Below, one piece after another: positions 970 to 50,783 of a stretch of DNA of 64,000 nt. The DNA is from a virus. Taxonomy: Duplodnaviria; Caudoviricetes. Both the position numbers and the translations under genes were made by a program. Each line of letters starts with the position of its first letter. Positions within the stretch are counted from its first letter, which is position 1. Under the pieces are notes generated by a model. The model was not told where the DNA came from, ran no database searches, and saw only the letters and a list, made by a program, of their open reading frames with translations. Location of the stretch: IMG/VR virus record IMGVR_UViG_3300022602_000026. One strand, written 5' to 3'.

Positions 970-1403
970 ACGAAGAATTACAAAAAGCAGCACGCATAGC
1001 ATTTGCCACAGAGTTTAGCTTTTACTTGAAAAGTCATTACTTTCACTGGAATGTAGAGGGTATTCACTTTCAAGAATATCATGCCTTGTTTGAAACCATC
1101 TACACCGAAGTGTATGGTATACTAGACGAGTTTGCCGAAAAGATTCGTAGCCTGGGTGCGTATGCTCCTGGTAGTCTCAGTAAATTAAGTATGTTGGCAC
1201 AAATAGAAGATCAAGACACGGTGCCCAACACACATGAAATGGTGTTGATGTTGTTGGAAGACAGTGATAAAGTCTGTGCACTATTAAAGATAGTTTATGA
1301 TGTTGCTGAATCTGCAGGCGAACATGGCTTCAGTAACTTTCTGGCAGAGCGTATGGACGCACATCGCAAACACAGTTGGATGCTACGCAGTAGTCTAAAA
1401 TAA
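966..1403 (+). CDS. dps: Dps/ferritin-like DNA-protection protein
   Basis: HYFHWNVEG..F...H..FE and D..AE.IR.LG ferroxidase motifs; C-terminal HRKHSWML; 145 aa. Confidence 0.9.
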   Translation: MNEELQKAARIAFATEFSFYLKSHYFHWNVEGIHFQEYHALFETIYTEVYGILDEFAEKIRSLGAYAPGSLSKLSMLAQIEDQDTVPNTHEMVLMLLEDSDKVCALLKIVYDVAESAGEHGFSNFLAERMDAHRKHSWMLRSSLK

Positions 1404-4400
1404 TGCATTTATTTGACTTGTTTGAATCTGCCACAAACTATGTCACACGTATAGACTCCAAGCCTATACAAGATTTTGCCTCCAATCTAAAAACATATCG
1501 ACACACCGATGACTGGACACAAAGTGGATTAGAAACCGGCGATGATTCATATTGGAAAAAGAAAAATTTAAAGACACAGACTAGTAAAGGATTATATGCC
1601 GGAGATCCGCAGTTTACAGCACTGTATGCCACAGGCAACGCACACGAAACTCGCTATGTGGCCAAATATGGTCCTGGGCATCCCATAGTATGGTTTGACA
1701 AAAAAGATTTACCAAGAATAAGAAATAAGAAAACCTATTTAACAGTATTTGATGCCGACAACTTTGAAAAGAAACCCAGTGGTGAATATTTTAGTAGCAA
1801 TCCCGGCGTGCCAGTTAAGCAAAAAGAAATATCCGATCCGTTCCAATACATAACCGATCAAGGTTGGGTTATACGCATCACCGACAATTTGCCCCAAGTA
1901 TTAAAGAAATTGCAACAGGAAAAAGACTGTCAATACGGCAGCGAAGGTATGAACGAAGACGTAGAAGAGGGTAAAATACTACACCCCGATAGAATCAACC
2001 TCTATCTAAATCTACGCAAGCCCAATGCCCGACCAATTCAAATAGCACACAACATTCCTTATAAGGCAATGGATGCAGTTATACAAAAACTTGTCAGCAA
2101 GTATTCCGACGTTGAAGCTGACATGTTTGAATTTAGGCCCGCTAGGGCTCTAAGAGAAGAACAAGATCCCGCAGTTGTGGAACTGTTAAAGAAAATGAAT
2201 TATCGTATGTGGGACAAAGGTGAAGGCGAATACGGCATGACCTTCAATAACACACGTCTTGAATTTAACAGTGCCGGAGTATTTTATAACGGCCCGCCAG
2301 TGAAAGGGCCCAATGGCGTCAAACCAAATTTTGGAATTAAATGGCGTCATGATCCCGAATGGTATAGCCCAAGGGGAGAAATAAGTTTCGGTCTGGCCTG
2401 GCAAATGGGGCTATTCCCAAAAATTAAGGGGATATATCCATATCTCCAAGCAATGGATAAACAGGGCCATAGCGATCGCAACAACTGTCTTAAAATAGAT
2501 CAGGTGATGGTAAAATCCGCCGTCGACTATGTTCGCAGCCAAAACACACCAGTCAATGAAGACAGTGGTGAGAATGACTTGTATGCTGCATACGATAAAA
2601 TCTTAATTGACCTGTGTGATGGTATTGTCAAGCATCAAAAGCAGGACAGTGATCGTTATGGTTTAGTTGCTGCCGCAGTTGTAGATCCCGATCACAATGT
2701 GGTATATGGTATAAATCACAAACTACCATCAGGTAAACGAGTACATGCCGAACGTGCTGCAATGGCAAATTATATTAACAAGTATGGTGCTATACCCGAG
2801 AATAGTGTTATAATAACCACACTGAGTCCCTGTGTTGATGATATGCCAGACCGTAAAGGACCCAGTTGCACAGAATTACTAAATGATAGTCCAATAACTA
2901 GAGTCTATGCCGGTTACCGAGACCACAGCCAAACACATCTAGCACACGATGAATTTGATGTTGTGTATACCGAAAACAAAAATATCGAAAGTGTTTGTAA
3001 AGAAATCGCAGACTGTTTCTTAGATGAAGAAGCCACTATGATGGATCCTGCTGACTATCGTGGTGAAAGTATAACCGAAGCCAAAAAGCGCCGAGCCAAA
3101 ACCCTAATTGATGGTATGATCAAGACCTTGGAACGTCAAGGCCGTAGCCGAGACGAAGCCATTGCCGATATCAAAAAGCAAGTGGATGCACAGTTTTATG
3201 AAAGCATTGATCATTTAGTAGAAGACGCATTTAATGGTATAGATATCAATATTGAAATACAAAAAGACGATGAATATGTTGATGATGACGATTACGATAA
3301 TCAAGTAATGTATGTTACAGCTACGAGTAACGGCCGTGAGTTGGGTCATGTATTATTTGCCTTTGATGGTGAATATTTACTACCACAAGACCTAGAAGTT
3401 GACGAACGTTATCGTGGACAAGGCATTGCTCAAACCATGTATGACTATGTGAAAAGTAAAGGTTATAAGATACGCCGTAGTGGTCAACAGACTGATGCTG
3501 GCGCTGGCTTTTGGGCCAAACATCGTCCCGGACAAAACGTGTGGGAAGCATTTGATCAACCCTATCAAATCAAATGGGAAAAGGGCGACTTTGGTGATTA
3601 TGATGCGCTGGCACAATTAGAGGATGGTAACTATCTCAGTATCATGTTTAACAAAGACTATAACAAACACAAGCAAGAAGGTTATAGTGTAGAATTTTGG
3701 AGAAACAACAGTCAAGAGGTCACTGGCGAAGGTGATGCACAACGTGTATTTGCCACAGTATTAAAGGCTATAAAACAGTTCATTAAAAAAACAAAACCCG
3801 GATTCATCATGTTCTCTGCCGACAAAGAACCCGAGTCGGGGCAGAGTGCAAGTCGTTCTAAATTATATTCTCGATTGGTACAACGCTATGCCGCTGCCTG
3901 GGGATATAGTGCTCGTGAACAAGATAGTGGACACAAGGTCACTTACGAATTAACTAGACTGGATTCGGATGTGGACGAAAACTTTGCTGATGGTAAAAAT
4001 CCCGGACGCAAGGGACTTGCTAAACGCTCAGGTGTTAACACCAAGGCCAGTGTAAGTAGTCTAAGAAAAACCGCTAAACATAGTACGGGAGAGAAAGCCC
4101 GTATGGCACACTGGTTGGCCAACATGAAGGCCGGCAAAAAGAAACATGCCAAAGAAGCCGTAGATGAAGATGCTATCAATGAAATTGAAAATTTACAATC
4201 ATACCAATATACAGGTGGTAAAGATGTGTTAAAACATCCTATGTTTACTGATCCCCGGGCAGTAAACCAAAAAAATATAAAACCGTTACCGGGCGGCAGT
4301 GGATTAAATTACGCCACTGTTGACAATGGACGTTTTTTAGAAATAAGAATATTAGATCAATCGGGGCAAGAAGCCGTCGGACAATTGAAATTGATGCGGG

Positions 4401-4909
4401 TAGGTTTTCCTATCAATAATGCATACCAAGTGAGTACTGTCACAGTGGATGAAGATTATCGAGGACAGGGTATTGCCAAGGCCTTGTACGGTGTTGCACT
4501 AAGCATATTAAAAATAACCTTGCTTGCCGGATCACAACAAACACCCGGCGGTAAACGTAATTGGATGAGTCTAGCACAAATTCCCGGAGTTGAAGTTCGC
4601 GGCTACGTAGAATTGGAAAACAGTGATCTTAAATATAAAAAGTTACATAAACAAAAAAATGCTAAGGATCTCGCAAGTGCAGAGAGAAGAAACGCAATAG
4701 TTGATAAAAATATCGATATTGTAATGGGACGATTGGGCGGTGACTATCTTGGAGACGACGAGGATGGCAATATGATTTTTGCTTTTGACGTAGTACCTGG
4801 TACCGGATCATTGATGCCAGCAGTAAAAACCGAATTAAACAAACTCTATTATGGTGAATACGATATGTTGTACGTAACTGGATTGTATGCACAGTGGCGT
4901 GGTGCATAA
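1403..4909 (+). CDS. 1168-aa multi-module protein: Zn-dependent nucleotide deaminase domain, two GNAT acetyltransferase domains and several unknown modules
   Basis: HAE (2744-2752) with LSPC...C deaminase motifs; VDERYRGQGIA and VDEDYRGQGIA acetyl-CoA motif A. Confidence 0.8.
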   Translation: MHLFDLFESATNYVTRIDSKPIQDFASNLKTYRHTDDWTQSGLETGDDSYWKKKNLKTQTSKGLYAGDPQFTALYATGNAHETRYVAKYGPGHPIVWFDKKDLPRIRNKKTYLTVFDADNFEKKPSGEYFSSNPGVPVKQKEISDPFQYITDQGWVIRITDNLPQVLKKLQQEKDCQYGSEGMNEDVEEGKILHPDRINLYLNLRKPNARPIQIAHNIPYKAMDAVIQKLVSKYSDVEADMFEFRPARALREEQDPAVVELLKKMNYRMWDKGEGEYGMTFNNTRLEFNSAGVFYNGPPVKGPNGVKPNFGIKWRHDPEWYSPRGEISFGLAWQMGLFPKIKGIYPYLQAMDKQGHSDRNNCLKIDQVMVKSAVDYVRSQNTPVNEDSGENDLYAAYDKILIDLCDGIVKHQKQDSDRYGLVAAAVVDPDHNVVYGINHKLPSGKRVHAERAAMANYINKYGAIPENSVIITTLSPCVDDMPDRKGPSCTELLNDSPITRVYAGYRDHSQTHLAHDEFDVVYTENKNIESVCKEIADCFLDEEATMMDPADYRGESITEAKKRRAKTLIDGMIKTLERQGRSRDEAIADIKKQVDAQFYESIDHLVEDAFNGIDINIEIQKDDEYVDDDDYDNQVMYVTATSNGRELGHVLFAFDGEYLLPQDLEVDERYRGQGIAQTMYDYVKSKGYKIRRSGQQTDAGAGFWAKHRPGQNVWEAFDQPYQIKWEKGDFGDYDALAQLEDGNYLSIMFNKDYNKHKQEGYSVEFWRNNSQEVTGEGDAQRVFATVLKAIKQFIKKTKPGFIMFSADKEPESGQSASRSKLYSRLVQRYAAAWGYSAREQDSGHKVTYELTRLDSDVDENFADGKNPGRKGLAKRSGVNTKASVSSLRKTAKHSTGEKARMAHWLANMKAGKKKHAKEAVDEDAINEIENLQSYQYTGGKDVLKHPMFTDPRAVNQKNIKPLPGGSGLNYATVDNGRFLEIRILDQSGQEAVGQLKLMRVGFPINNAYQVSTVTVDEDYRGQGIAKALYGVALSILKITLLAGSQQTPGGKRNWMSLAQIPGVEVRGYVELENSDLKYKKLHKQKNAKDLASAERRNAIVDKNIDIVMGRLGGDYLGDDEDGNMIFAFDVVPGTGSLMPAVKTELNKLYYGEYDMLYVTGLYAQWRGA

Positions 4910-5032: not shown

Positions 5033-5260
5033 ATGATCACCCAACAACAACTATTCGAAGTTATAGCCAAAGCTGAAGACTTGGATCCAACGTCGTTGAC
5101 TTTGGAAACCAAGTTAAGTGATTTGGGTATAGATAGTCTTGCCAAAATGGAATTGATATTCCACGTTGAAGATCAATATAAAATTATGCTACCAAGTAAC
5201 GAGCTCGATGTTTCGACATTGGGCGAAGTTTTGGATTTGGTCAACAGACACCTACCTTAG
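5033..5260 (+). CDS. Acyl carrier protein
   Basis: 75 aa, acidic, LGIDSL phosphopantetheine attachment motif, followed by ELIFHVEDQYKI helix. Confidence 0.85.
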   Translation: MITQQQLFEVIAKAEDLDPTSLTLETKLSDLGIDSLAKMELIFHVEDQYKIMLPSNELDVSTLGEVLDLVNRHLP

Positions 5261-7008: not shown

Positions 7009-9672
7009 ATGAGTTACGTAGATGCTCTATTTGATCGAGCAAAAGATAGAATTCACGTTGTTGAACGTGTAGACGGCGAAAGAAAGTATAAAGAATACGC
7101 TGCCGAGTATGTTTTTTATTACGACGACCCCAAGGGCAAACACCGCACTATATTTGATACTCCGGTTTCAAGATTCCATACTAGAAACAGTAAAGAGTAT
7201 CACAAAGAACTAAAAGTAAATTCAGGCAAACGTTTGTGGGAAAGTGATATCAATCCCATATTTCGTTGTCTTGAATCAAACTATCTCGGGGCTACCTCGC
7301 CCCGATTACATACTGCATTTTTTGACATTGAGGTAGATTTTGATCCCGAAAAAGGTTATGCACCCACAAGCGATCCTTTTAATAAAATAACAGCCTTTTC
7401 CATTTACTTGGATTGGTTAGATAGACTTGTAACTTTGGTGGTTCCACCAAAGTCAATAAGTTGGGATACTGCTGAAGAAATCTGTAGCCGATTTGATAAC
7501 TGTTTTCTTTTTGAACGTGAAGAAGAAATGATCGATACATTTCTTGAACTAATACAAGACGCAGATATCTTAAGTGGATGGAACAGTGAGGGATTTGATA
7601 TTCCTTATACTGTGGGCCGCATTGTACGTGCCTTGAGCCGAGATGACCTAAGACGTTTGTGTTTGTGGAATCAAATGCCTAAAGAGCGTACATTTGAACG
7701 TTTTGGTGCAGAAAATATTACATTTGACTTGATTGGTCGTGTGCACATGGACTATATGCAACTGTACCGCAAGTACACATACGAAGAACGACACAGTTAT
7801 AGCTTGGATGCTATTGCCGAATACGAACTAGGCGAAAGTAAAACGCCTTATGAAGGAACTCTAGATCAGTTGTACAACAAAGACTTTCCCAAGTTTATCG
7901 AGTACAACCGACAGGATACAATGCTGATTGCAAAATTTGACAAGAAACTACGCTTTCTTGATCTTGCAAACGAATTGGCACATGATAACACAGTATTACT
8001 GGCCACTACAATGGGTGCAGTGGCAGTAACCGAGCAGGCGATTATTAACGATGCTCATCAACGTGGTATGGTAGTTCCTAACAGAAAGGGTCGTGATGAC
8101 AAAGAACAAACGCAGGCCGCAGGTGCCTATGTTGCTTATCCCAAAAGAGGTATGCACCGAGACATTGGTGCGATCGACATCAACAGTCTCTATCCCTCGG
8201 CTATTCGTGCCCTTAACATGGGACCGGAAACTATCGTCGGGCAACTCCGGCCAATAATGACCGATCTCTACATCTCGAAAAAGATGGAAGAAAACGGCGG
8301 AAACTTTGCCGAAGCATGGGAAGGTTTGTTTGGCAGTTTAGAATATACTGCTGTAATGGCAGGCGAAGTGGGTACCGAGATCACAATAGATTGGGAAGAT
8401 GGTAGAGAAAGTGTACACAGTGCCAAACAGGTATGGGACATTGTTTTTAACAGTAACCAACCTTGGACCCTGAGTGCAAATGGTACTATATTCAAATACG
8501 ACCGTAAGGGCATTATTCCTGCATTGTTGGAACGTTGGTACGCCGAGCGTAAGGAAATGCAAAAGAAACTCAAGGAAGCAGAAACAGATGAAGACAAAGC
8601 CTATTGGGACAAACGACAGTTGGTCAAAAAGATTAATCTTAATAGTTTGTATGGTGCTTTACTCAATCCTGGCTGTAGGTTTTTCGATAAACGTATTGGT
8701 CAATCTACCACACTTACCGGACGAGGAATTGCCCACCACATGGATTCGCACGTTAACGAAGCCATTACCGGGAAATACGACCACGTAGGTGATGCTGTCA
8801 TATATGGCGATACTGACTCGGTTTACTTCTCGGCCTGGCCCATGGTTCGAGAAGATGTTGAAGCCGGACGCATGGAATGGAACAAAGACATCGCTATACA
8901 GTTATATGATACCATTGCTGACAGTGTAAATGAATCGTTTCCGGCATTTATGGAACGTGCATTTCATTGTCCGCGAGAGATGGGTGCTATCATCAAGGGC
9001 GGACGTGAGCTTGTGGCATCAAAAGGTTTGTTTATTAAAAAGAAACGCTATGCAGTGCTCATCATAGACAAAGAAGGCAAACGTCTAGACACACACGGAA
9101 GCCCAGGCAAGGTAAAGGCCATGGGTTTGGACTTGAAGCGTTCAGATACTCCCAAAGTAGTACAAAACTTTTTAAGCGAGATCTTGATGGATGTGCTGAC
9201 CGGAGCCGAACGTGAAGCTATTATCGAAAAGGTAAAAGAATTTAAGATTGCATTTAAAGAGCGACCAGCCTGGGAAAAAGGCACACCTAAACGTGTAAAC
9301 AACTTGACCAAGTACACTGCCGAAGAACAACGATTGGGCCGAGCCAACATGCCCGGACACGTCAGAGCAGCAATGAACTGGAACAATCTAAAACGTATGC
9401 ATGGCGATAACTATTCTAGTGCTATTGTGGATGGTATGAAAACTATTGTATGCAAATTAAAGGATAATCCCCTAGGCTATACCAGTGTTGGTTACCCCAC
9501 TGATGTGCTACACATCCCACAATGGTTCAAAGACTTGCCGTTTGACAATAGTGCTATGGAAGGTGCTATTGTAGATCAAAAGGTAGAAAACTTACTGGGT
9601 GTTCTTGAATGGAAGATAAAAGAAAACACGGACATCGGTAGCACATTTGATAGTTTATTCAGCCAGGGCTAA
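7009..9672 (+). CDS. polB: Family B DNA polymerase (T4 gp43-like)
   Basis: Exonuclease motifs FFDIE, GWNSEGFDIPY and YNRQD; polymerase motifs DINSLYPS, KINLNSLYG and YGDTDS. Confidence 0.97.
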   Translation: MSYVDALFDRAKDRIHVVERVDGERKYKEYAAEYVFYYDDPKGKHRTIFDTPVSRFHTRNSKEYHKELKVNSGKRLWESDINPIFRCLESNYLGATSPRLHTAFFDIEVDFDPEKGYAPTSDPFNKITAFSIYLDWLDRLVTLVVPPKSISWDTAEEICSRFDNCFLFEREEEMIDTFLELIQDADILSGWNSEGFDIPYTVGRIVRALSRDDLRRLCLWNQMPKERTFERFGAENITFDLIGRVHMDYMQLYRKYTYEERHSYSLDAIAEYELGESKTPYEGTLDQLYNKDFPKFIEYNRQDTMLIAKFDKKLRFLDLANELAHDNTVLLATTMGAVAVTEQAIINDAHQRGMVVPNRKGRDDKEQTQAAGAYVAYPKRGMHRDIGAIDINSLYPSAIRALNMGPETIVGQLRPIMTDLYISKKMEENGGNFAEAWEGLFGSLEYTAVMAGEVGTEITIDWEDGRESVHSAKQVWDIVFNSNQPWTLSANGTIFKYDRKGIIPALLERWYAERKEMQKKLKEAETDEDKAYWDKRQLVKKINLNSLYGALLNPGCRFFDKRIGQSTTLTGRGIAHHMDSHVNEAITGKYDHVGDAVIYGDTDSVYFSAWPMVREDVEAGRMEWNKDIAIQLYDTIADSVNESFPAFMERAFHCPREMGAIIKGGRELVASKGLFIKKKRYAVLIIDKEGKRLDTHGSPGKVKAMGLDLKRSDTPKVVQNFLSEILMDVLTGAEREAIIEKVKEFKIAFKERPAWEKGTPKRVNNLTKYTAEEQRLGRANMPGHVRAAMNWNNLKRMHGDNYSSAIVDGMKTIVCKLKDNPLGYTSVGYPTDVLHIPQWFKDLPFDNSAMEGAIVDQKVENLLGVLEWKIKENTDIGSTFDSLFSQG

Positions 9673-9673
9673 C

Positions 9674-10612
9674 ATGAAGTTGTATGACTTAGTGAGTCTC
9701 AAAGAAGCTCTTAAACGAGAATTTGATACCGAGTTATCGATACAGGAGCTGACACGTCTACGCAATCGCATTGCGAATATTAAGTTACAGGTCAATTACT
9801 TGGATGCCGAATACGAGCAATCCGTAGACCAATGGATTGCGTATTACGACAACTTGATCTCTAAGATTAATTCTCCAATGGTTGAAAGCCAAACAAGAAT
9901 CAACGAGATCAACGATAGGATAACCGAACTGAGTCACAAATTGTTTGCCGACAGTTTTGTAATCGAAAGCAGTCAAGTCGACATTGACTTTGTTCGTGCT
10001 AATCGTAAAATTTCTTTGCCCGAAGACATGGAACAAACAGTCAAGCAACGAATACTGTTATACACTAATTGGCGTTATCCGGCATTGGAAATAGGTTGTA
10101 GAGACGGTGAATGGACACAGTATCTAGTTGCTGCTGATCCACTATATATCACCGATACATTTACAGAATTTTTAGACAACGCCAATAGTCAATTTCCCGG
10201 GGCATATCAAAATAGATTAAGAAAGTATCAGTTGAAAAATTATGACTTTTCTGCGTTACCAAAAAATCAATTTGCGTTTGTGTTTAGCTGGGGGCATTTT
10301 AATTTTCTCAGTTTAGATACCACTGGACAAATACTAAAACAACTTAGAGAATTAATGAGACCGGGAGGGGTATTTTTGTTCAGTTACAACGACGGGGATA
10401 CTCCGCAGGGAGCAGGCATGGCCGAAAACATGGCACAGACTTATTTGCCAAAAAGTCTATTAATACCCACTTGCGAGAGTTTGGGGTTTGAAATACTAAA
10501 TGATGCCAACTTGGGTCCAAATGTAACTTGGTTAGAAATTAAAAAGCCCGGTACATTACACACAGTCAAAGCACATCAAGTATTAGGCGAAGTAAAAAGA
10601 ATACAAAATTAA
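9674..10612 (+). CDS. Class I SAM-dependent methyltransferase with N-terminal coiled coil
   Basis: ALEIGCRDG motif I; FAFVFSW..F; LMRPGGVFLF. Confidence 0.75.
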   Translation: MKLYDLVSLKEALKREFDTELSIQELTRLRNRIANIKLQVNYLDAEYEQSVDQWIAYYDNLISKINSPMVESQTRINEINDRITELSHKLFADSFVIESSQVDIDFVRANRKISLPEDMEQTVKQRILLYTNWRYPALEIGCRDGEWTQYLVAADPLYITDTFTEFLDNANSQFPGAYQNRLRKYQLKNYDFSALPKNQFAFVFSWGHFNFLSLDTTGQILKQLRELMRPGGVFLFSYNDGDTPQGAGMAENMAQTYLPKSLLIPTCESLGFEILNDANLGPNVTWLEIKKPGTLHTVKAHQVLGEVKRIQN

Positions 10613-10621
10613 TCAAAAGCA

Positions 10622-10650
10622 TTGACAGGTCTAAATATAACTGTTACAAT
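10622..10650 (+). promoter_or_regulatory. sigma70-type promoter
   Basis: TTGACA-17 bp-TACAAT, then AGGAG RBS. Confidence 0.8.
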
Positions 10651-10670
10651 TACACATCATAGGAGAAACC

Positions 10671-11411
10671 ATGCAAGATTATTTAAAAGATATAGTACAA
10701 CACACAACTGGATTAGGCAACATTGATCTAATCAAGGTCACAGGAACCGACACAGAAACACTTATTAATAGCGTAAGCGAAGACCGTAGTGTTATTTTAG
10801 AAGCCAAGTTTAAATCAGCACACCCCGAGTTTATTGGCACATTTGGTATGCCAAATCTTGCAAAACTAAAAACAATTTTGAACATTGACGAGTATCGTGA
10901 AGATGCCAAGGTTTCTGTTAACACACAAACCAATACTGCCGGCGAAACAGTGCCTAGCGGCATTCACTTTGAAAACAAAGCCGGAGACTTTAAAAACGAT
11001 TATCGTTACATGGAAGCCGGTGTTATCAATGACAAACTTAAAACAGTCAAGTTTAAAGGTGTAAAGTGGGGAATTGATTTTGTGCCAACAGCGGCCAATA
11101 TTCAAAGATTGCGTTTTCAAGCAAGTGCAAACAGTGAAGAAACAACATTTACTGCCAAAACAGATGCACAAGGTAATTTGCATTTTTACTTTGGTGATCC
11201 AAATACCCATGCCGGTAATTTGGTATTTGCCAGTGGACTAAGTGGTAATTTTACAAAGACTTCGTGGCATTGGCCTGTTAACGTGGTGTTGAGTATTCTT
11301 GCATTACCTGGAGACAAGACATTTAAAATGAGTGACGAAGGCGCAAGTAAAATCACTGTTGATTCAGGCTTGATTGAATACGACTATATCATCCCTGCAC
11401 AAACAAAATAA
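10671..11411 (+). CDS. Probable DNA sliding clamp (gp45/PCNA-like)
   Basis: 246 aa, two-domain alternating beta/alpha pattern, FGMPNLAKLKTIL, near the polymerase gene; assignment by pattern only. Confidence 0.5.
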   Translation: MQDYLKDIVQHTTGLGNIDLIKVTGTDTETLINSVSEDRSVILEAKFKSAHPEFIGTFGMPNLAKLKTILNIDEYREDAKVSVNTQTNTAGETVPSGIHFENKAGDFKNDYRYMEAGVINDKLKTVKFKGVKWGIDFVPTAANIQRLRFQASANSEETTFTAKTDAQGNLHFYFGDPNTHAGNLVFASGLSGNFTKTSWHWPVNVVLSILALPGDKTFKMSDEGASKITVDSGLIEYDYIIPAQTK

Positions 11412-12409
11412 TGTCGGGTATAGCAGATGCTACACTGAAATTTTATCCTAGAGGTGCAGATGCAGGTGTTATAACACATACCTGCAATGCTCCGCATAGG
11501 GTAGTTAACATTGATACCACAGGATCATGTTATGTTTGTCATTGCGAAGCATGGTTGCCTATTTCAGTGGGCAATATTTTAGACTTTACAAGTTTAGAAC
11601 AGATATGGGATAGCGAAACTGCCAAAGAATTACAACAAGATGTTGACAGTCAAAAATTTACTTATTGTGCGGTTCGACATTGTGGAGTTGTAAATTACAA
11701 TATTGACTTTGCTCACTATCAAATTGGAGTCAACATTGACGAGAGTTGCAATCTTGCTTGTCCCAGTTGTCGTAAATCAATGACCAATCACACACAAGGC
11801 GAAGTATTTGATCTAAGAAAAAGTTATGTTGATCATTTGGTAACTCTTGTAAACAACTTTGACAAGCCGTTGAAATTGATAATGAGCGGTAACGGTGATC
11901 CACTAGCCAGTTTAATAATGCGTCCCTTGGTGCTGAACTGGCAACCAAAGAGCAACCAAACTATCAAACTGTTTACCAATGGGTTGTTAATGAAGAAGTT
12001 GTTGCCCGACAGTCCGGTGTTACCTTCGATTCGAGAATTTCAAATCAGTGTCGATGCCGGCAGTCATGATGTTTATCACGATGTTAGACGTCCGGGACGA
12101 TTTGATGTACTACAAGAAAACCTGCAATGGTTATCGGAAAATAGAAAAGGGGCCAGAGTAGATTTGCAGTTTTGCCTTCAGGCCAGTAATGCCAACGATG
12201 TTGTAAACTTTGCCGACATGTGTGATCGTTACGGATTCAATGGTAATATTGTCAAATTGGACAATTGGCATACATTTGACGACTTTGATCAGCGCGATGT
12301 AGTTGATAATAAAACACATCCGTTACATACAACAGCAATGCAACAACTAAAATTGGTTAAAGATCGCCGAAGCATCTGCATTAATTCATACCTATTGGAT
12401 TTAATATGA
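11411..12409 (+). CDS. Radical SAM protein with N-terminal Cys-rich (SPASM/twitch-like) domain
   Basis: CNLACPSC; GNGDPL; LFTNG; N-terminal C...CYVCHC...C..C. Confidence 0.85.
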   Translation: MSGIADATLKFYPRGADAGVITHTCNAPHRVVNIDTTGSCYVCHCEAWLPISVGNILDFTSLEQIWDSETAKELQQDVDSQKFTYCAVRHCGVVNYNIDFAHYQIGVNIDESCNLACPSCRKSMTNHTQGEVFDLRKSYVDHLVTLVNNFDKPLKLIMSGNGDPLASLIMRPLVLNWQPKSNQTIKLFTNGLLMKKLLPDSPVLPSIREFQISVDAGSHDVYHDVRRPGRFDVLQENLQWLSENRKGARVDLQFCLQASNANDVVNFADMCDRYGFNGNIVKLDNWHTFDDFDQRDVVDNKTHPLHTTAMQQLKLVKDRRSICINSYLLDLI

Positions 12410-13044
12410 ACTGGTTAGACCATTACCAACACAAAGGACATGTATTTGGCGAATGCATGAGTCATCAAGACAGTGAGTTAATGTATGTATATATTCCCAA
12501 AAATGCCAGCTCGTGGACCAAGCCCAACTTATTAGATTGGAAATGGGAGAATTACAATTATCACAGGGACAATTTGTATCACAAAACTGCTATAATAGTG
12601 TTACGTGATCCTGTAGATCGTTGGGTATCGGGTATTGCTGAATATATGTATCTTTACCATAAACACTTTCGACCAAATGCATCAATGCCAGTTGCCGTAC
12701 TGGATTTAATATTTGATAAAATAAGTTTTGACGATCACACCGAACGACAAATATATTTTATCGAAGGACTTGATCTAAATAAGTGTATATTTTTTAAATT
12801 TGAACATGACTATAGACACAAATTTAGCCATTTTCTTTTTACACAAAATATGCCAAATACTTATGCCAACTACGAGTTTCAACATGTCAGTGAACAAAAT
12901 CTCGAGCGGCGAAGATGGAAACAATTTATTCAGCACCAATTAGAAAATTCTAAATATATGTTTCAATTAAAACAATATTTCAAAGCCGACTACGAATTAA
13001 TTAATCAAGTAAAATTTTATGACCCAGGACAACCTAACACTTAA
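12406..13044 (+). CDS. Sulfotransferase family protein
   Basis: YVYIPKNASSW (5'-PSB-like) and VLRDPVDRWVSG (3'-PB-like) motifs. Confidence 0.75.
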   Translation: MNWLDHYQHKGHVFGECMSHQDSELMYVYIPKNASSWTKPNLLDWKWENYNYHRDNLYHKTAIIVLRDPVDRWVSGIAEYMYLYHKHFRPNASMPVAVLDLIFDKISFDDHTERQIYFIEGLDLNKCIFFKFEHDYRHKFSHFLFTQNMPNTYANYEFQHVSEQNLERRRWKQFIQHQLENSKYMFQLKQYFKADYELINQVKFYDPGQPNT

Positions 13045-14593
13045 ACAACGAGACTACGCAGTATTTTTACCGGCCATCAGCGGGTTTTATGCTACATTTA
13101 TTGGACGACAACGCACAGAACAGTATGTAGATCCTGCACGTTTTCCGCAGGGCTTAACTGATATGGAGCAACTTAATTGGCTTAACAGTCAACAGGCATT
13201 GTTTCCGTATAAATGGAGTTTGCATTCGGGCGGACATGCCAACTTGGATTTGACCAAGTTTGTCAGCAGTGAGGAAATGATACGTACACGTGAAGCGGGT
13301 ACTGTAATGATCGGAGACTCAGGCGGATTCCAAATTGCCAAGGGCTTGTGGGAAGGCGACTGGAAAGCCAATTCAGGATGTGCAGATGCACAAGGCAAAC
13401 GTGAAGCAGTGCTTAAATGGCTCGACGGCATTGCCGACTATGGCATGGGATTGGATATTCCCACTTGGGTAGTGCGTGACAAAAATGCCAGTGCCAAATG
13501 CAAAATTACCAAGCACCAAGAAGCAGTTGATGCCACAAGATTCAATAACGAATACTTTATTGCAAATCGCAAAGGCGTAAAAAATGGTGGTGCCAGGTTC
13601 TTGAATGTGTTACAAGGAGCAACACATAAAGATGCCGAAGAGTGGTATCAGACCATGAAAGACTATTGTGATCCTGCACGGTATCCCGACAAGCATTTTG
13701 ATGGTTGGGGCATGGGTGGACAAAACATGTGTGATGTACATCTTATATTGCATAGATTAATTACCATGAAGTATGATAATTTATTGCAAGAAGGCGTACA
13801 TGATTGGATGCACTTTTTAGGCACAAGCAAATTAGAATGGGCAGTATTGCTTACAGTTATTCAACGTAATGTTCGCAAATATATCAATCCCAAATTTACT
13901 ATCTCTTTTGATTGTGCAAGTCCGTTCCTAGCAACTGCCAATGGACAAGTATACTACGAAAACTCATTTCCATTAAATGGCAAATGGAGTTACCAAATGA
14001 AGAGTTGTGTCGACGACAAGAAGTATGCCACAGACACACGTAAATTCAGTACGGCATTAAAACAAGACTTTCCAAAAGAATTTGGTACGTTTGAAGACAG
14101 TCCAGTTAGTGATATGTTACAGATGAAAGATATCTGCATATACCGGCCCGGAGATCTAAACAAGAACGGCAAAGAAGGTCGAACCAGTTGGGACAGTTTT
14201 AGTTATGCATTGTTAATGGGGCATAATGTTTGGATGCATTTGACAGCAGTACAAGAAGCCAACAGACGTTTTGATGCGGGCGAGTATCCCGAAATGATGC
14301 GTACTAGTGTCACTGGCGAACGTTTTGAAGACATTGTAGAAAGTATATTTGCAGCGCCTACAAAAGAAGCCAGCATGGAAATTATTGAAAAGTACGATAG
14401 ATACTGGACCGAAATCATTGGCGGACGTGGGTTTACTGGCAAGAAACAACGTAATGCAATGACAACAACCAGCAACACCAATGTTTATGAATTAGAAGTA
14501 GATCTTTCTAAACCCAAACTAAGCAAGGCCGAAGCTAAGGCCAAAAAAGCAGCAAAGACACCAAAAATCAACACAGCAATCTTTGAGGAGTAA
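13019..14593 (+). CDS. TGT-fold transglycosylase, DpdA-like (7-deazaguanine insertion into DNA)
   Basis: IGDSGGFQI, MGLDIP, NVLQG, HFLG, SFDCAS and GHN TGT motifs; folE, queD and queE in the same region. Confidence 0.85.
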   Translation: MTQDNLTLKQRDYAVFLPAISGFYATFIGRQRTEQYVDPARFPQGLTDMEQLNWLNSQQALFPYKWSLHSGGHANLDLTKFVSSEEMIRTREAGTVMIGDSGGFQIAKGLWEGDWKANSGCADAQGKREAVLKWLDGIADYGMGLDIPTWVVRDKNASAKCKITKHQEAVDATRFNNEYFIANRKGVKNGGARFLNVLQGATHKDAEEWYQTMKDYCDPARYPDKHFDGWGMGGQNMCDVHLILHRLITMKYDNLLQEGVHDWMHFLGTSKLEWAVLLTVIQRNVRKYINPKFTISFDCASPFLATANGQVYYENSFPLNGKWSYQMKSCVDDKKYATDTRKFSTALKQDFPKEFGTFEDSPVSDMLQMKDICIYRPGDLNKNGKEGRTSWDSFSYALLMGHNVWMHLTAVQEANRRFDAGEYPEMMRTSVTGERFEDIVESIFAAPTKEASMEIIEKYDRYWTEIIGGRGFTGKKQRNAMTTTSNTNVYELEVDLSKPKLSKAEAKAKKAAKTPKINTAIFEE

Positions 14594-26455: not shown

Positions 26456-26695
26456 ATGGAAGGTTTAAAACCACCACGCACACTGAAGTTTTATCAATTG
26501 ACCAAACTGTCAATCAGTGGTGGTCTTTATATAACTCCGGCTGGCATTGGCACCGGCACTATCGGGAGCGGTATATTTCGAACCCTGGATGAAGCCGAAC
26601 AAAATCGCACAATGGAAATACTCAGAGACAAAGACGGCACAGGCACTTATCATGTGTTTGAATTGGAATTCCCTAACCCGGCGTATCAAGAATGA
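26456..26695 (+). CDS. Hypothetical protein
   Basis: 79-aa coupled ORF. Confidence 0.6.
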   Translation: MEGLKPPRTLKFYQLTKLSISGGLYITPAGIGTGTIGSGIFRTLDEAEQNRTMEILRDKDGTGTYHVFELEFPNPAYQE

Positions 26696-27402
26696 TATTA
26701 TATGTAAACGGTGACAGCCATAGTGCTGGTCATGGCACTAAAAATCCTGCAGGCATGGCCTATAATGATTCAAAATATTTTGAACTAGGAGATGCTCCGC
26801 ATCCAGACAATTTGCCCTATAGTTATGGCTACTTGGCAGCGCAGGATCTAGGACTAGATCTAGTTTGCCAAGCCGAAAGCGGCAGCAGCGTTGAGCGTAG
26901 CATACGAATGACTAAAAAGTTTGTATACCAAACAAATCAAAATGTTTTTGTATTAATTGGTTTTCCGTCCATAGAACGAGAAGAATGGAATTATAAAGGT
27001 CAATGGTTTCAAATTAATGCCAGTGGGCATAACATATTACCCGACGGGTTACAAACACGATACAAAGAATGGATTGCTAAATACGATAACAAGGTATGGC
27101 ATCGACGTGCACTTTATTTAAACGATGTGATACGGGATTTTCACACTTGGTTAGACACGCGAAATATTCCGCATTTGTTTTTTAATACCGAACAAAGTTT
27201 ATCGGCAAATACAACACATTACCAGTTTGACAATAGTTATTTGGGTGCATACGATAACACACTTATCTACAGTCATTGGCTTCGAGCACAAGGACATGTA
27301 CCCGACGAATGGAGTCATTTTGGAGTCGACGGGCATCGAGCTTGGGCAGACTTTTTAAAACCATTTATAAATGATAATATACGTAAACGGCGACAGTCAT
27401 AG
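26692..27402 (+). CDS. SGNH/GDSL-like protein (tandem paralog 1)
   Basis: MILYVNGDSHS, ESGSS, REEW, HFGVDGH. Confidence 0.6.
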   Translation: MILYVNGDSHSAGHGTKNPAGMAYNDSKYFELGDAPHPDNLPYSYGYLAAQDLGLDLVCQAESGSSVERSIRMTKKFVYQTNQNVFVLIGFPSIEREEWNYKGQWFQINASGHNILPDGLQTRYKEWIAKYDNKVWHRRALYLNDVIRDFHTWLDTRNIPHLFFNTEQSLSANTTHYQFDNSYLGAYDNTLIYSHWLRAQGHVPDEWSHFGVDGHRAWADFLKPFINDNIRKRRQS

Positions 27403-28081
27403 TGCTGCCGCAGAAGCAGTCAACAACTACGCCTTTGCCGAAGACGATCCCCAGTTCTGGGCATTGGGCCGTAAGCCACATCCCGATAATGAACGTGTGA
27501 GTTATGGATGCCATATAGCAAATAAACTGGGTGCTATACTACACTGTGATGCTGAAAGTGCAAGTAGTAACAGTCGTATATTCCGTACCACACAAGATTA
27601 TCTACGATGCTACAGTAAACCCGATTTACTCGTAATTGGCTGGAGTACTTGGGAACGTGAAGAATGGTGGGACGATGTTACACAGAGATATTGGCAAATT
27701 AATGCCGGGGGCATTGGCGAAGATTGGCCACAAAGCATCAAGGATCGATATAAGAATTGGGCTTTAAAATTAAACTATCAAGCATCAATTAATAAATCAC
27801 ATAGAGCTATATATAATTTTCATCGCAAGTTATTAAACGATGGAGTAATCCATTATTTCTTTACCTGCTACGAACCATTTGCTCATGTAGAAAAACTGGA
27901 TTGGAGCGATTGCTATCTAAATCCGTATGATAAAGACTACACTTACTACAATTGGTGTCAGAATCAGGGATTCAAAACAGTTAATCCCAAGAGTTACCAT
28001 TTTGGGGCAGATGCTCACGAGGCCTGGGCCGAATTTATATATCCCAAAATTGTCCAAAGTTGCTTGACACGTAATGAATAA
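27371..28081 (+). CDS. SGNH/GDSL-like protein (tandem paralog 2)
   Basis: MIIYVNGDSHS, ESASSN, REEW, HFGADAH; same length (236 aa) as its neighbour. Confidence 0.6.
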   Translation: MIIYVNGDSHSAAAEAVNNYAFAEDDPQFWALGRKPHPDNERVSYGCHIANKLGAILHCDAESASSNSRIFRTTQDYLRCYSKPDLLVIGWSTWEREEWWDDVTQRYWQINAGGIGEDWPQSIKDRYKNWALKLNYQASINKSHRAIYNFHRKLLNDGVIHYFFTCYEPFAHVEKLDWSDCYLNPYDKDYTYYNWCQNQGFKTVNPKSYHFGADAHEAWAEFIYPKIVQSCLTRNE

Positions 28082-32650: not shown

Positions 32651-33696
32651 GTTATTTAGATGTAATACGTACCAAGTACGATATTAAAGACTACAAAGAA
32701 GCAAAAGTAGAAATACCCAAACTTCCCACAGAAGGTATTGTGTTGATTGTGGGCACTAGTGGTAGTGGCAAGAGTACTATACTACGAAGTTTAGGCGAAC
32801 TCAAGCAACCCTACATAGATGATGAAGCCTATGTAATCGATAACTTTAGCTCACCCGAACGCGGTGAAGAACTGTTGTTAAGTTGTGGATTGCGTACTAT
32901 ACCTGCTTGGTTTAGACCGCCTGTTACACTCAGCAATGGTGAACGGCATAGATTTGAAATGGCCATGAGTTTGGATCAAGGTATCAACACCATTGATGAA
33001 TTCACCAGTGTGGTGGATCGTGATACTGCCAAGAGTTTAGCATACAGTGTTCGCAAGTATTATGATCGACAGGCAGACGGTAAGCCGTTATACATTGCCA
33101 GTTGCCACAGGGACATAGTAGAATGGTTAGACCCCGACTACGTATATGACACGGACTTACGTGTCTTAGAAAACCGGAGGTCACTTCATCGATTGGGGCG
33201 ACCCTCCATTACTCTCACCATCCGCAGCGCAAGTAGCACGTATTGGCGACTGTTTGGTAAGTATCACTATCTAGACACTGCACTGGCCAAAGGTGCACAT
33301 TGTTATGTGGGCCTAATAGACAACAAGCCGGTGGTGTTTGGTGCTGTTATTCATAGCACCAGCGGAACACTACACAGTTATTGGCGTGGTCATAGAACTG
33401 TGGTGCTACCCGAGTTTCAAGGCCTGGGTATTGGATCGGCATTCAGTGATGCAGTAGCAGAAATATATCACAGTCGCGGCCTGTTGTATTACAGCAAGAC
33501 TGCACATCCTGCGTTTGGCGAGCATAGGAATCGTAGTCCTCTATGGCAAGCCACTAGCACCAATGGCAAAAGTCGTGCTAACAGTTATTTAAACAAGGAT
33601 GGCACCAAGCGAGCCATGCCCGGCTATGGTGGAACTACTGTGGAACGCGATGCAGCTCGTGTGTGCTATTCACACAAATACATTGGAAAAAGTTAG
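32647..33696 (+). CDS. ABC-ATPase/GNAT acetyltransferase fusion
   Basis: GTSGSGKST Walker A, LSNGE signature, IDEF Walker B, ASCH H-loop, then RTVVLPEFQGLGIG GNAT motif A. Confidence 0.85.
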   Translation: MSYLDVIRTKYDIKDYKEAKVEIPKLPTEGIVLIVGTSGSGKSTILRSLGELKQPYIDDEAYVIDNFSSPERGEELLLSCGLRTIPAWFRPPVTLSNGERHRFEMAMSLDQGINTIDEFTSVVDRDTAKSLAYSVRKYYDRQADGKPLYIASCHRDIVEWLDPDYVYDTDLRVLENRRSLHRLGRPSITLTIRSASSTYWRLFGKYHYLDTALAKGAHCYVGLIDNKPVVFGAVIHSTSGTLHSYWRGHRTVVLPEFQGLGIGSAFSDAVAEIYHSRGLLYYSKTAHPAFGEHRNRSPLWQATSTNGKSRANSYLNKDGTKRAMPGYGGTTVERDAARVCYSHKYIGKS

Positions 33697-34088
33697 GCAC
33701 TAGCAAGTTCTTGTTCACCTTGCGGAGTCAAGAACCAAAATCCATCGCCAGGAGTTACAATCAATCCCGCACTTTCTAGACTGTCATAAACACGTTGTTG
33801 ACTATCTGTAACGCCACGTATGTCTTGTTGAAAGTCTAATTTATGGTTATTAGCAACGTCAATTGCTTTCAACAACAATAGTTTGCCGTATCCTTGCCCT
33901 AGAAAACGGCCGTCAACTTCCACTTCATTATTGACATCATCAGTGTCAGGATCTCGAACAAAATTAAAATGACCTATGCGTTTGCCCTGAGCCGATAAGG
34001 TGATTTGAAAACTACTTGCGAAATTGTCAGGTGTATGTACTGCAAATTGTAGTCCCGATGATTCTGTTAGGATTTCTGTTATTCGCAT
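33693..34088 (-). CDS. GNAT acetyltransferase-like protein with MRITEILTE leader
   Basis: VEVDGRFLGQGYGKLL motif A. Confidence 0.7.
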   Translation of the reverse strand: MRITEILTESSGLQFAVHTPDNFASSFQITLSAQGKRIGHFNFVRDPDTDDVNNEVEVDGRFLGQGYGKLLLLKAIDVANNHKLDFQQDIRGVTDSQQRVYDSLESAGLIVTPGDGFWFLTPQGEQELASA

Positions 34089-34702
34089 TATGTGTACACC
34101 AAACTGTCTATTCTTTTGTAGCGAATGTTAAATGCGTTCATTAGTAATTCTACTTCGCGCAAACATTGATCTCGTGCCCCGCCAACTATATAAGCACCAC
34201 TAAAACGTTTTAATTGTGCAATACTGGTCCAATTAACACTAATAGGATCATCTTCCATTTCCTGCATAGCACCCATGATCAAACTCTGTTGTGGAGTGCG
34301 TCTGTTAGATGCAGGAAATTGTAATTCTCTACTGTCACTTTTCTTTTGTTGATATAGTTCACGTATAGTGGCAATAATTGTTGCAGACTCTATTCCCGAA
34401 TCCATCCAGCTTCTTAAATAACCATAGCCTTTGTCCGCTATTTGAACTCTACGCCAATTCTCAGGAGCAAATCCCGAATCGTCCCAATATTCTTTAATAC
34501 TTTGAATAGTATCTCCACTGAGTCCTTGATCTTCTGCGTTGACAAACATCAATACTGGTCCGGTTTGATGGTTTACAAATTGAATAATTTCTGTGAATAC
34601 GGAGTTTTCATCACCGTCATTCATGCCCGAATATTCAGGTTGTACATCCACCACTATAACAGGGTGTGCTCGGCCTTCTGTGATGATTTCTTGTATACGC
34701 AT
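34088..34702 (-). CDS. Isochorismatase/cysteine-hydrolase-fold protein with MRIQEIITE leader
   Basis: VIVVDVQPEY N-terminal motif; IVGGARDQCL catalytic-Cys region. Confidence 0.55.
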   Translation of the reverse strand: MRIQEIITEGRAHPVIVVDVQPEYSGMNDGDENSVFTEIIQFVNHQTGPVLMFVNAEDQGLSGDTIQSIKEYWDDSGFAPENWRRVQIADKGYGYLRSWMDSGIESATIIATIRELYQQKKSDSRELQFPASNRRTPQQSLIMGAMQEMEDDPISVNWTSIAQLKRFSGAYIVGGARDQCLREVELLMNAFNIRYKRIDSLVYT

Positions 34703-34711
34703 TATATTGGG

Positions 34712-35437
34712 TTATTTCATATCTGCAAGTGGGTCAAACAACACCACGTGACCATCACTGCCCATGGCGTAGTTGTTTATGTTGTCAAAATCAACATACA
34801 CATTTCCGTTGTATAATCGGTATGAATTTTTTCGTGCTATTCCTACTAAATCTAACACTGTTTGAACAAATTGTTGTAATTTTTCTTCACCGCCCAAATA
34901 AGTGATAGCAGTTGCTACCCACAGTTGTTCTTCTCTACTGGCTCGTGGATTTTGAAATTGACTCTCAGAGTCTTTTCTGGGCTCCTTGTCTACAAATCTT
35001 TTTAAGAATTGCTGGTATACGTTTTTGTTTTGAGCGTTATGGTATATCCAATTTGCCATGACATAAACCCCCCTCACTACTCCTTGACGCCCTTTAAACG
35101 GAAACAATCGTTCCATTCTGATCTGCAAATAGGGACGACCTTGATACATAAACTGATTCCACCCCGACATCTGTGGTAGAAATTCATTGTCAGGATGTTG
35201 TTGGCAATAATCAGCAAACAATTTAAAAACTTTTTGTGGCCTAGTAAGTTCACCTGCGACATCATCTGACTTGAATAAGTTTGTGCCCAATATCTTGAGC
35301 ACCATGCCAGTATCAGGTTCTAAAAAGGCCATACTGTCACCGCCTTGACCAAGATATTGATATCCACGACTGATTAAGTCAGCCTTGATGCTGCGACTGT
35401 GTGCTGAGGCTTCTGTAAGGATTTCTGTTATTCGCAT
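34712..35437 (-). CDS. Protein-kinase-like protein with MRITEILTE leader
   Basis: LGQGGDSMAF Gly-loop, VLKI, RMERL, DFDNINN, VLFDP; start placed at 35437 from the shared leader. Confidence 0.6.
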   Translation of the reverse strand: MRITEILTEASAHSRSIKADLISRGYQYLGQGGDSMAFLEPDTGMVLKILGTNLFKSDDVAGELTRPQKVFKLFADYCQQHPDNEFLPQMSGWNQFMYQGRPYLQIRMERLFPFKGRQGVVRGVYVMANWIYHNAQNKNVYQQFLKRFVDKEPRKDSESQFQNPRASREEQLWVATAITYLGGEEKLQQFVQTVLDLVGIARKNSYRLYNGNVYVDFDNINNYAMGSDGHVVLFDPLADMK

Positions 35438-36098: not shown

Positions 36099-37199
36099 AT
36101 GTCAGTAGCAGAACACCGCACCGTTAGTCCCACAGAAGCACGTAGTCGCGTTTTACGTTGTTTTAAGAATAAACGTCCAGTATTTTTATGGGGCCCTCCC
36201 GGCATCGGTAAGAGTGAACTGGTAGCAGATTTGACCGCAGAACTTGGCGGACACATGATTGACTTGCGTTTGGGTCAAATGGAGCCCACAGACATTCGTG
36301 GTATTCCATTCTTTAACAAGACAAACGAAAAGATGGATTGGGCTCCTCCAATTGACTTGCCTGACGAAGAAATGGCTAGTAAGTATCCAATCGTTGTGCT
36401 ATTTTTAGATGAGATGAATTCAGCGGCACCCAGTGTGCAGGCAGCTGGTTATCAACTTATTCTTAACAGACGTATCGGTAAGTATGTGCTTCCAGACAAT
36501 GTGGTTATTGTTGCGGCCGGTAACAGAGAATCTGATAAAGGTGTTAGTTACAGAATGCCAAGTCCCTTAGCCAATCGCTTTGTTCACTTGGAAGTTAAAT
36601 GTGACTTTGATTCGTGGTTCCAATGGGCCGTTAATCACAACATCCACCAGGACGTAGTAGGTTACATTGGCTTTGCTAAACAGGCTTTGTTTGAGTTTGA
36701 TCCCAAGAGTGCTAGTCGCAGTTTCGCTACTCCACGCTCATGGAGTTTTGTTAGTGACTTCTTGCAAGACGAAGATGCTAGCGATGCAGAGCTTACAGAC
36801 TTGATTTCAGGTACTGTAGGTGAAGGTACTGGTATTAGTTTTATGGCGCATCGTAAGGTGGCAGGTCAAATGCCCAAGCCCGAAGATGTGTTGAGCGGTA
36901 AGGTCAAAGAGCTTAAAGTAAAAGAAGTCAGTGCTATGTACAGTTTGACAATCTCCATGTGCTATGAATTGCAAGATCAGTACAAGAAGTTGGGCAAGGA
37001 AAAACTTGCAGACTGGCATGCACAGGCCGACAACTTCCTGGGCTTTATGATGGCGAACTTTAGCACAGAGTTGGTGGTTATGGGTGCAAGAGTTGCGCTT
37101 ACAACTTACAACTTGCCCATGGTACCTGGCAAGATGAAGAACTTTGACGAGTTCCATAAACGCTTTGGCAAGTACATTATTGCTGCTAGCGGTAAGTAA
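36099..37199 (+). CDS. MoxR-like AAA+ ATPase
   Basis: GPPGIGKS, DLRL, LFLDEMN, AAGNR, LANRF, ATPRSW. Confidence 0.9.
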   Translation: MSVAEHRTVSPTEARSRVLRCFKNKRPVFLWGPPGIGKSELVADLTAELGGHMIDLRLGQMEPTDIRGIPFFNKTNEKMDWAPPIDLPDEEMASKYPIVVLFLDEMNSAAPSVQAAGYQLILNRRIGKYVLPDNVVIVAAGNRESDKGVSYRMPSPLANRFVHLEVKCDFDSWFQWAVNHNIHQDVVGYIGFAKQALFEFDPKSASRSFATPRSWSFVSDFLQDEDASDAELTDLISGTVGEGTGISFMAHRKVAGQMPKPEDVLSGKVKELKVKEVSAMYSLTISMCYELQDQYKKLGKEKLADWHAQADNFLGFMMANFSTELVVMGARVALTTYNLPMVPGKMKNFDEFHKRFGKYIIAASGK

Positions 37200-38515: not shown

Positions 38516-38704
38516 ATGGCTACTACAGCAAACGGAAGAAAATACATTATCATAAGCGCCATTCTATATGAGGACCTTGTGGATCTAGTTAACAACGCAC
38601 TGGACGCAGGCTACATTTGCATGGGCGGTGTGGCTACTACTGCTGGACCTAATGGGCAACGAGTGCTCCAAGCAATGGTCAAGAGCACCACTTACGGAGT
38701 CTAA
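38516..38704 (+). CDS. DUF1737-like small protein
   Basis: Y.II.....EDL...VN.AL..GY...GGV...QAMVK pattern. Confidence 0.55.
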   Translation: MATTANGRKYIIISAILYEDLVDLVNNALDAGYICMGGVATTAGPNGQRVLQAMVKSTTYGV

Positions 38705-38705
38705 T

Positions 38706-38734
38706 TTGACTCATAATGACAAAGATGCTATAAT
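38706..38734 (+). promoter_or_regulatory. sigma70-type promoter, AATG-spacer class
   Basis: TTGACT-catAATGacaaagatgc-TATAAT. Confidence 0.85.
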
Positions 38735-38762
38735 TAAGTATAGTAAGAAACAAGGAATACAA

Positions 38763-50781: not shown

Positions 50782-50783
50782 AG

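Follow-up and report, generated by a model that had tools for sequence, protein, structure and literature searches.

How does a single phage gene come to encode a string of unrelated small domains, with the same kind of short motif at one border after another? The question is raised by a 64,000-nucleotide stretch of viral DNA (Duplodnaviria; Caudoviricetes; IMG/VR record IMGVR_UViG_3300022602_000026), the whole of which is referred to here as the window. At positions 1403-4909 (+ strand) the window holds an open reading frame (ORF) of 1168 amino acids (aa) that is open throughout and begins MHLFDLFE/SATNY (slashes mark the position after the Glu of a joint), as had been claimed in an initial annotation. 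Its product consists of an 8-residue leader followed by nine modules, here called A to I. With a deaminase, two GNATs, DUF6886, DUF6934 and four further modules, it joins at least two disparate activities in one phage polypeptide, as polyvalent proteins do. The hydrophobic-x-Glu motifs listed in the annotation are all present in the sequence, and such sites are found at E8, MNE185, LRE252-E253, VNE386, ITE559, LVE607, VWE715, VDE859, VDE922 and INE927. Because every joint has a cut site of the T4 head protease type, the phage probably loads and cuts a set of enzymes from one protein.

When the protein was compared with 120 length-matched homologs, the starts and ends of BLAST high-scoring segment pairs (HSPs) piled up at residues 8, 185, 253, 384-386, 559-560, 605-610, 711-715, 853-859 and 914-922. 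In an all-versus-all comparison of 261 family proteins, HSP starts clustered at P3, and HSP ends at the Glu, of the nearest [ILVM]-x-E. Across these proteins 443 breakpoints were called without using any motif; an [ILVM]-x-E ended exactly at 36% of these, against a random level of 1.6% (3.4% at most over 200 trials), and lay within ±4 residues of 68% (random 14%). The logo of the joints reads Q/K at P5, G/N at P4, V62/L16/I15/M7 at P3, A/W/N at P2, E at P1, A/N/D/G at P1' and F at P2', and [ILVM]-x-E is over-represented relative to shuffled sequences (z = 12, against z = 3-6 for control motifs). Upstream of module H there are 47 distinct joints at the DNA level; in 38 of these [ILVM]-x-E is retained, with varied P3 codons and almost any residue at P2. 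Since codons and P2 vary in this way, the conserved element is a degenerate peptide motif and not a recombination sequence.

Structure prediction gave a matching division of the chain. In an AlphaFold model of residues 1-392 (mean predicted local distance difference test score (pLDDT) 72.6), values fell below 50 only at 1-10, 185-196, 207-210, 247-253 and 383-392. In the full-length model, region 390-913 is made up of domains above 90 pLDDT with dips at 546-555, 599-606, 709-714 and 857-861, followed by a further dip at 914-957. The model of residues 1-392 was built separately from alignment A2 and the full-length model from alignment A1, in which modules A and C and the divergent rows of module I are unaligned, so that the full-length model is unreliable at 1-390 and 930-1168. 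Three MAFFT alignments (A3, A4 and A5), in which the query was set against fragments from shuffled relatives, were mis-registered and were left aside. Because the pLDDT dips separate confidently predicted domains, the motifs appear to lie in exposed, disordered linkers outside the folds. The coincidence of dips with BLAST breakpoints bears out the earlier proposal that the motifs are domain borders; they are not buried inside domains.

The family to which the protein belongs is large, with 4019 clusters at 50% identity matching at E<=1e-3 and 742 at E<=1e-30. Labelled solely by the nine modules of this protein, 260 relatives show 141 architectures and, together with stand-alone copies of modules, the recurrence of domains singly and in other combinations that is expected of polyvalent proteins. 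Module order is not fixed, since both GF (49) and FG (35) occur among relatives. One and the same module can have many upstream partners, always standing directly past the Glu (QGVAE/AFDNPY, NVNE/AFDKPY, NVWE/AFDQPY, SITE/), and modules also stand directly past a leader, as in MRASEFITE/AFDQPY, MRAKEFIIE/DAFNGIDI (module F) and MRATDFVTE/IERIG. Partner domains in relatives include NMNAT, NUDIX, Amidoligase_2, ADP-ribosyltransferase (ART), zeta-toxin kinase, Pol-beta nucleotidyltransferase (NTase), ParB-like, GGCT and GH19/LysM domains; no embedded peptidase was seen in the relatives, and tblastn returned matches to single modules only. The Vibrio phage nt-1, a genuine T4-like phage, encodes a two-module protein (ORF252) with module G behind NLTE/AFDKP, and the gene adjoining it starts MIEFLTE/. 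A literature search for virion data from the KVP40 group on this nt-1 homolog found nothing usable.

The closest relative with a long contig, P0002 (352.7 kb), carries its gene in the same slot (ferritin, polyvalent gene, acyl carrier protein (ACP), and further on the polymerase) at ~81-87% DNA identity. The P0002 gene is without modules A and C at these positions, and homology to it breaks at nt 1426/1427, 1966/1967, 2160/2161 and 2557/2558, in each case on a joint or at most 3 codons from one. Module swapping at the Glu linkers, which the initial annotation had suggested, is thus seen both in the architectures and in cassette insertions and deletions at joints between ~84%-identical syntenic loci. 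By three independent lines, namely homology breakpoints, pLDDT dips and the gain or loss of whole modules, the joints are true module borders. The modules can be inserted, lost and reordered as cassettes because each, as we propose, carries its own cut site.

Like T4-type cargo with a capsid-targeting sequence (CTS), the protein begins with a propeptide of about 10 residues whose end is hydrophobic-x-Glu. Family N-termini fall into the classes MRAxEF[IL]xE, MHLFDLFE, MK[IV]LQI[IL][TK]E and MNLKELDSF, and the leaders MRAQEFITE and MRAREFIAE, the latter found in the related contig G002, resemble the start of the T4 internal proteins IPII and IPIII, MKTYQEFIAE/A, taken directly from record NC_000866. 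The first 10 residues of IPIII suffice to package foreign proteins, and the internal proteins (IPs), like Alt, enter the host by injection together with the DNA (PMC3012670, PMC9026906, PMC5694885, PMC9958956). Comparable leaders had been noticed at 33.7-35.4 kb of the window, and these proved to be real, belonging to three tandem genes on the minus strand. They lie at 33693..34088 (leader MRITEILTE/S; 20 BLAST matches among family proteins), 34088..34702 (MRIQEIITE/G; 3 matches) and 34712..35437 (MRITEILTE/A). The likely true start of the last is the ATG at 35437; the sequence ATAAATA, 4 nt upstream of this ATG, is too close to interpret. The modules of the first two genes recur inside polyvalent relatives, and the three genes are single-module counterparts of the polyprotein.

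The window's DNA polymerase shares 51% identity with its counterpart in Sinorhizobium phage Phosso and 44% with the enzymes of Atu_ph07, GAP32, CBB and BF, and on sequence grounds the phage is an uncultured jumbo myovirus of the T4 superfamily, in the Atu_ph07/Phosso/GAP32 neighbourhood. A near-identity DNA search among GenBank phages returned nothing. Five large IMG/VR contigs with relatives of the 1168-aa protein have polymerases 63-78% identical to that of the window, and three of these (G002-G004; polymerase 70-78% identical; 51-60% complete by CheckV) encode both Peptidase_S77, the T4 gp21-type protease (E 1.7e-28 to 3.3e-25), and the T4 Gp23 major capsid protein (E about 1e-97), with both families above Pfam cutoffs. 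In G002 the head genes stand in T4 order. At locus L079 of this contig (G002:C1:77848-81297), an acidic core protein that directly precedes the gp21 homolog (ORF at L079:1453-2088) starts MNKYEQLIE/F, close to the T4 CTS, and the protease itself starts MAYLKE/H, comparable to LIE-9 in T4 gp21. The G002 scaffold has IINE and AINE, and its capsid protein has LLE7, LLE19 and ILE33 near the N-terminus. Black et al. reportedly gave L/I-x-E as the T4 gp21 consensus in 1994. The gp21 protease and the prohead proteases of giant phages cut C-terminal to Glu at short motifs; of the L/I-x-E consensus these papers confirm only the Glu, and LIE-9 is cited as fitting the gp21 cleavage logo (PMC3012670, PMC9026906, PMC5694885, PMC9958956). 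T4 gp21 is active only within assembled proheads (PMC9958956).

We therefore consider it probable that the ORF encodes a polyprotein targeted to the capsid and divided by the prohead protease into separate enzymes that are packaged and injected. The 8-9-residue N-terminal leader would act as a T4-type CTS, such that the whole chain would enter the scaffolding core of the prohead. There, once activated, the gp21-type prohead protease would cut after the Glu of every exposed V/I/L/M-x-Glu linker. Cutting would free about nine proteins of 5-27 kDa, among them DUF6886 (possibly ART-like), the zinc deaminase, two GNATs, DUF6934 and a small basic helical domain, and the freed modules would be retained by the head and pass into the host alongside the DNA, in the manner of T4 IPI-III and Alt. 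This reading is the most economical, as it accounts jointly for the leader, for the identity of the leader's end with the joint motif, for the agreement between the joints and what the superfamily's protease is known to cut, and for the cassette-like evolution. The initial annotation had likewise proposed a packaged polyprotein. Its proposal gains from the T4-CTS-like leader, the gp21-type site at the joints, the gp21 homolog in relatives and the exposed, disordered joints; cleavage and packaging themselves are strongly suggested rather than shown.

A wider version of this idea, which could be called "one ticket, many passengers", is put forward more tentatively, as a possibility. With one leader of ~9 residues and the joint sites, any string of enzymes could be packaged in fixed stoichiometry, cut apart within the head and then injected, and cassettes would be exchanged as they are in polymorphic toxins. 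Module H may then be a co-packaged DNA-binding or ejection helper, while the deaminase, NMNAT, NUDIX and ART-like cargoes may, within the opening seconds of an infection, target the nucleotide- and NAD-based immunity of the host.

A number of observations weigh against the capsid-targeted polyprotein. Capsid targeting, cleavage, injection and all enzymatic targets are things that we infer, and they concern a clade with no cultured member. No prohead protease gene is present in the 64-kb window, nor in two of the five related contigs, both of which are fragments, and the leader pattern is absent from the cultured relatives Phosso, Atu_ph07, GAP32 and nt-1. The ORF is surrounded by replication and metabolic genes (Dps, ACP, DNA polymerase), and the T4-type late promoter TATAAATA is no more frequent than expected by chance and does not occur upstream of 1403. 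Flexible acidic linkers could also be conserved for non-proteolytic reasons. Finally, 9 of the 47 joints upstream of module H deviate from the motif, for example GWNSE/. A recurrent joint of this type, GWNSE/AFD, stands before module G in 17 distinct DNA variants (IMG/VR loci L002-L078) and has no hydrophobic residue at P3. Unless the protease accepts Asn at P3 (or makes use of Trp at P4), some joints are left uncut.

If linkers are all that the motifs provide, the product would be an uncut polyvalent multidomain enzyme, a single ~130 kDa chain, packaged or not, in which hydrophobic-x-Glu marks flexible linkers or recombination-tolerant module ends. Polyvalent proteins of 2-15 domains are known, and some, such as the N4 virion RNA polymerase (vRNAP), are packaged unprocessed (PMC5512222); the gene context here, moreover, is not structural. 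We nevertheless think this unlikely, because a plain linker leaves unexplained why the leader ends in the joint motif with the first module directly past its Glu, why the motif equals a T4-type protease site, and why Glu at P1 and V/I/L at P3 persist although the codons and the P2 residue are free to change. The same replication and metabolic neighbours, along with the missing late promoter and the metabolic look of some modules (the RibD-like deaminase here, NMNAT or NUDIX in relatives), would suit a second alternative, in which a Glu-specific protease, gp21-type or other, frees modules that act in the producing cell with no injection. This, however, sits poorly with the restriction of T4 gp21 activity to the inside of assembled proheads (PMC9958956), with a leader that matches a capsid-targeting sequence and with the typical injected-effector domains of relatives (ART, zeta-toxin kinase, ParB-like, GH19/LysM), and we judge it quite improbable. 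It is harder still to believe that the protein is a component of the head core or scaffold, chopped and expelled to make room for DNA like T4 gp22, gp67 and gp68, with enzyme folds that are incidental or inactive. Although cleavage at several sites is known for T4 core proteins (PMC9026906) and module H is a small basic peptide, the strict conservation of the deaminase catalytic residues and of motif A in both GNATs speaks against such a role, and the extreme variability of module content is ill-suited to a structural scaffold.

Turning to the modules, all of which are encoded on the + strand, the leader (1403..1426; aa 1-8, MHLFDLFE, ending L-F-E) is a T4 CTS-like propeptide that falls within the first stretch below pLDDT 50. 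Module A (1427..1957; aa 9-185; ends GMNE185) has a weak, sub-threshold Pfam match to DUF6886 at 85-171; an ART-like fold is possible and is given as a lead only. Searches of the PDB by Foldseek with the N-terminal model gave no match, and a VIA-wide search gave weak matches only. Module B (1958..2161; aa 186-253; ends ALRE252-E253) is small and alpha/beta in the predicted model, and is found directly behind the leader in at least 14 homologs (MHLFDLFE/D..EGKIL). Module C (2162..2560; aa 254-386; ends PVNE386) is beta-rich, has only 4 homologs and gave no fold match.

The deaminase, the two GNATs and the basic module named in the initial annotation could each be located. Module D (2561..3079; aa 387-559; ends SITE559) is a CDA-superfamily zinc deaminase with HAE ... 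SPC-x11-C (Pfam dCMP_cyt_deam_1 at 416-504). It keeps the zinc-binding and catalytic residues and, as far as these can tell, looks catalytically intact; by sequence it is nearest to RibD/TadA/guanosine-type deaminases. The mutagenic or anti-defence role once envisaged for it is speculation. Module E (3080..3223; aa 560-607; ends HLVE607) is a basic two-helix mini-module, with predicted helices at 557-578 and 583-601 between pLDDT dips, and is gained or lost in homologs independently of its neighbours. Module F (3224..3547; aa 608-715; ends NVWE715) is a minimal GNAT with motif A RYRGQGIA (Pfam Acetyltransf_1 and Acetyltransf_7; GNAT at 620-706). Module G (3548..3979; aa 716-859; ends DVDE859), the commonest module of the family, matches DUF6934 weakly, at the Pfam cutoff (769-830), as well as PHROGs 16075 and 6387. 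A relationship of module G to GNATs was considered and dropped, as hhalign against the GNAT module shows none.

Module H (3980..4183; aa 860-927) is a basic three-helix mini-domain, NFADGKNPGRKG...MAHWLANMK, followed by a spacer with VDE922 and INE927. Its basic NFADGKNPGRKG part comprises aa 860-922, and pLDDT is 90-95 at 870-913. It is the last module in most architectures of relatives and also stands alone as viral proteins of 61-67 aa, for which Atlas clusters reach 1123 viral members. The mini-domain ranks among the most widespread pieces of the system. Module I (4184..4909, stop codon included; aa 928-1168) is the second GNAT, with motif A DYRGQGIA and a C-terminal extension (Pfam GNAT at about 1002-1036; phrog_15502), and a stand-alone homolog of it, P0167, starts MRATDFVTE/IER. 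Acetyltransf_1 scored 36.9 bits on the whole protein against a cutoff of 20.7, while module I alone was marginal at 20.1 bits. Conservation is strict at the catalytic residues of module D and in the motif A of each GNAT, the element that binds acetyl-CoA (R/Q-x-x-G-x-G/A). Profile searches of the PDB with modules G, H and A found nothing. The Pfam scan of the protein showed no MuF (Phage_Mu_F; sought up to E 1) or Dar domain, and no domain of the polyvalent seed families (Alt-like ART, MuF, ArdC, DarA/B, N4 vRNAP, relaxase) or embedded peptidase.

Immediately upstream lies a Dps/ferritin-like gene (966-1403, +; Pfam Ferritin, 1.3e-21), the stop codon of which overlaps the start of the polyprotein ORF (TAATG), an arrangement that indicates translational coupling. 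The pairing of the two genes is kept in the 352-kb relative (L086). Downstream come an ACP gene, a stand-alone acyl carrier protein at 5033-5260 (+), and, adjoining it, a family-B DNA polymerase. These are followed at 9647-14593 (+) by a methyltransferase and a SPASM/radical-SAM enzyme, a biosynthetic set that is unusual for a phage. Further along, 46209-51881 (+) encodes a thymidylate-synthase homolog, then a radical-SAM protein, a nucleotide-sugar epimerase and an aminotransferase, and a gene for a carbamoyltransferase lies not far off at 56052-57545 (-); together these could be a DNA hypermodification or sugar pathway. A MoxR-type AAA+ ATPase and DUF2201 (VWA-like, putative metallopeptidase), a pair usual in cellular genomes, are encoded at 36099-37199 (+) and 38628-40031 (+). 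Two adjacent 236-aa paralogs (26692-27402 and 27371-28081, +) share the start MI[LI]YVNGDSHSA, a sequence resembling the GDS motif (block I) of the SGNH/GDSL hydrolases.

Should cleavage proceed as predicted, the 4019 clusters would represent a very large pool, not described until now, of phage effectors that the virion delivers. Effector borders could then be read straight from sequence, and hundreds of uncharacterized domains, including DUF6886, DUF6934 and module H, could be separated for expression and for testing in counter-defence or host takeover. The T4 capsid-targeting principle would be extended from single internal proteins to polyproteins, and the combination of a leader with V-x-E linkers would offer a natural design rule for loading several proteins into T4-type capsids.

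Of the systems already described, the internal proteins of T4 (IPI, IPII, IPIII) and Alt share with this protein a short leader ending in hydrophobic-x-Glu (MKTYQEFIAE in T4; MRAQEFITE and MHLFDLFE here), unrelated and fast-evolving cargoes, a gp21-type protease in the lineage and, among the cargo, host-modifying enzymes (Alt is an ART). They differ in being single proteins with one leader each, whereas here up to nine or more cargoes are concatenated, with a cut site per joint, a recurrent basic terminal module H and processing that is predicted. Polyvalent proteins (Iyer, Burroughs, Anand, de Souza, Aravind 2017, PMC5512222) likewise combine disparate enzymatic domains in one polypeptide, undergo shuffling and are predicted to be delivered with DNA; GNAT, ART, NTase, lysozyme and ParB-like domains recur in both. 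By contrast, their seed domains (MuF, ArdC, DarB and others) are absent here, where a CTS-like leader and V/I/L-x-Glu joints are what defines the family. For processing, that study looks to zincin-like or other peptidase domains embedded in the proteins; it uses 'deaminase' and 'prohead' only in passing and does not discuss linkers (PMC5512222).

In phiKZ, 201phi2-1 and SPN3US, many packaged inner-body or ejection proteins are similarly cut after Glu by gp175/gp245 (S/A/G-x-E, A-x-E), sometimes at several sites per chain (PMC5694885, PMC9026906), but the lineage and motif are different, and the cuts trim propeptides from proteins of the structural or ejection type; they do not divide a string of unrelated enzymes. 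The MuF-type polymorphic toxins of temperate phages and P1 DarB/DdrB resemble the present family as head-packaged effectors with swappable toxin or enzyme modules, yet they are targeted by an N-terminal structural domain and not by a cleavable leader. RNA-virus polyproteins, for example with picornavirus 3C sites, also have a single translation product, a protease site per domain joint and fixed stoichiometry. They have no evolutionary relation to the family described here, in which cleavage would take place within the prohead and would yield accessory effectors, not replication machinery. In the literature found, polyvalent proteins and gp21/CTS processing are treated separately, with no paper linking them or describing polyproteins built from a leader and joints. 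In this protein two known concepts meet: the internal proteins and Alt of T4, with their CTS and gp21, and the polyvalent proteins.

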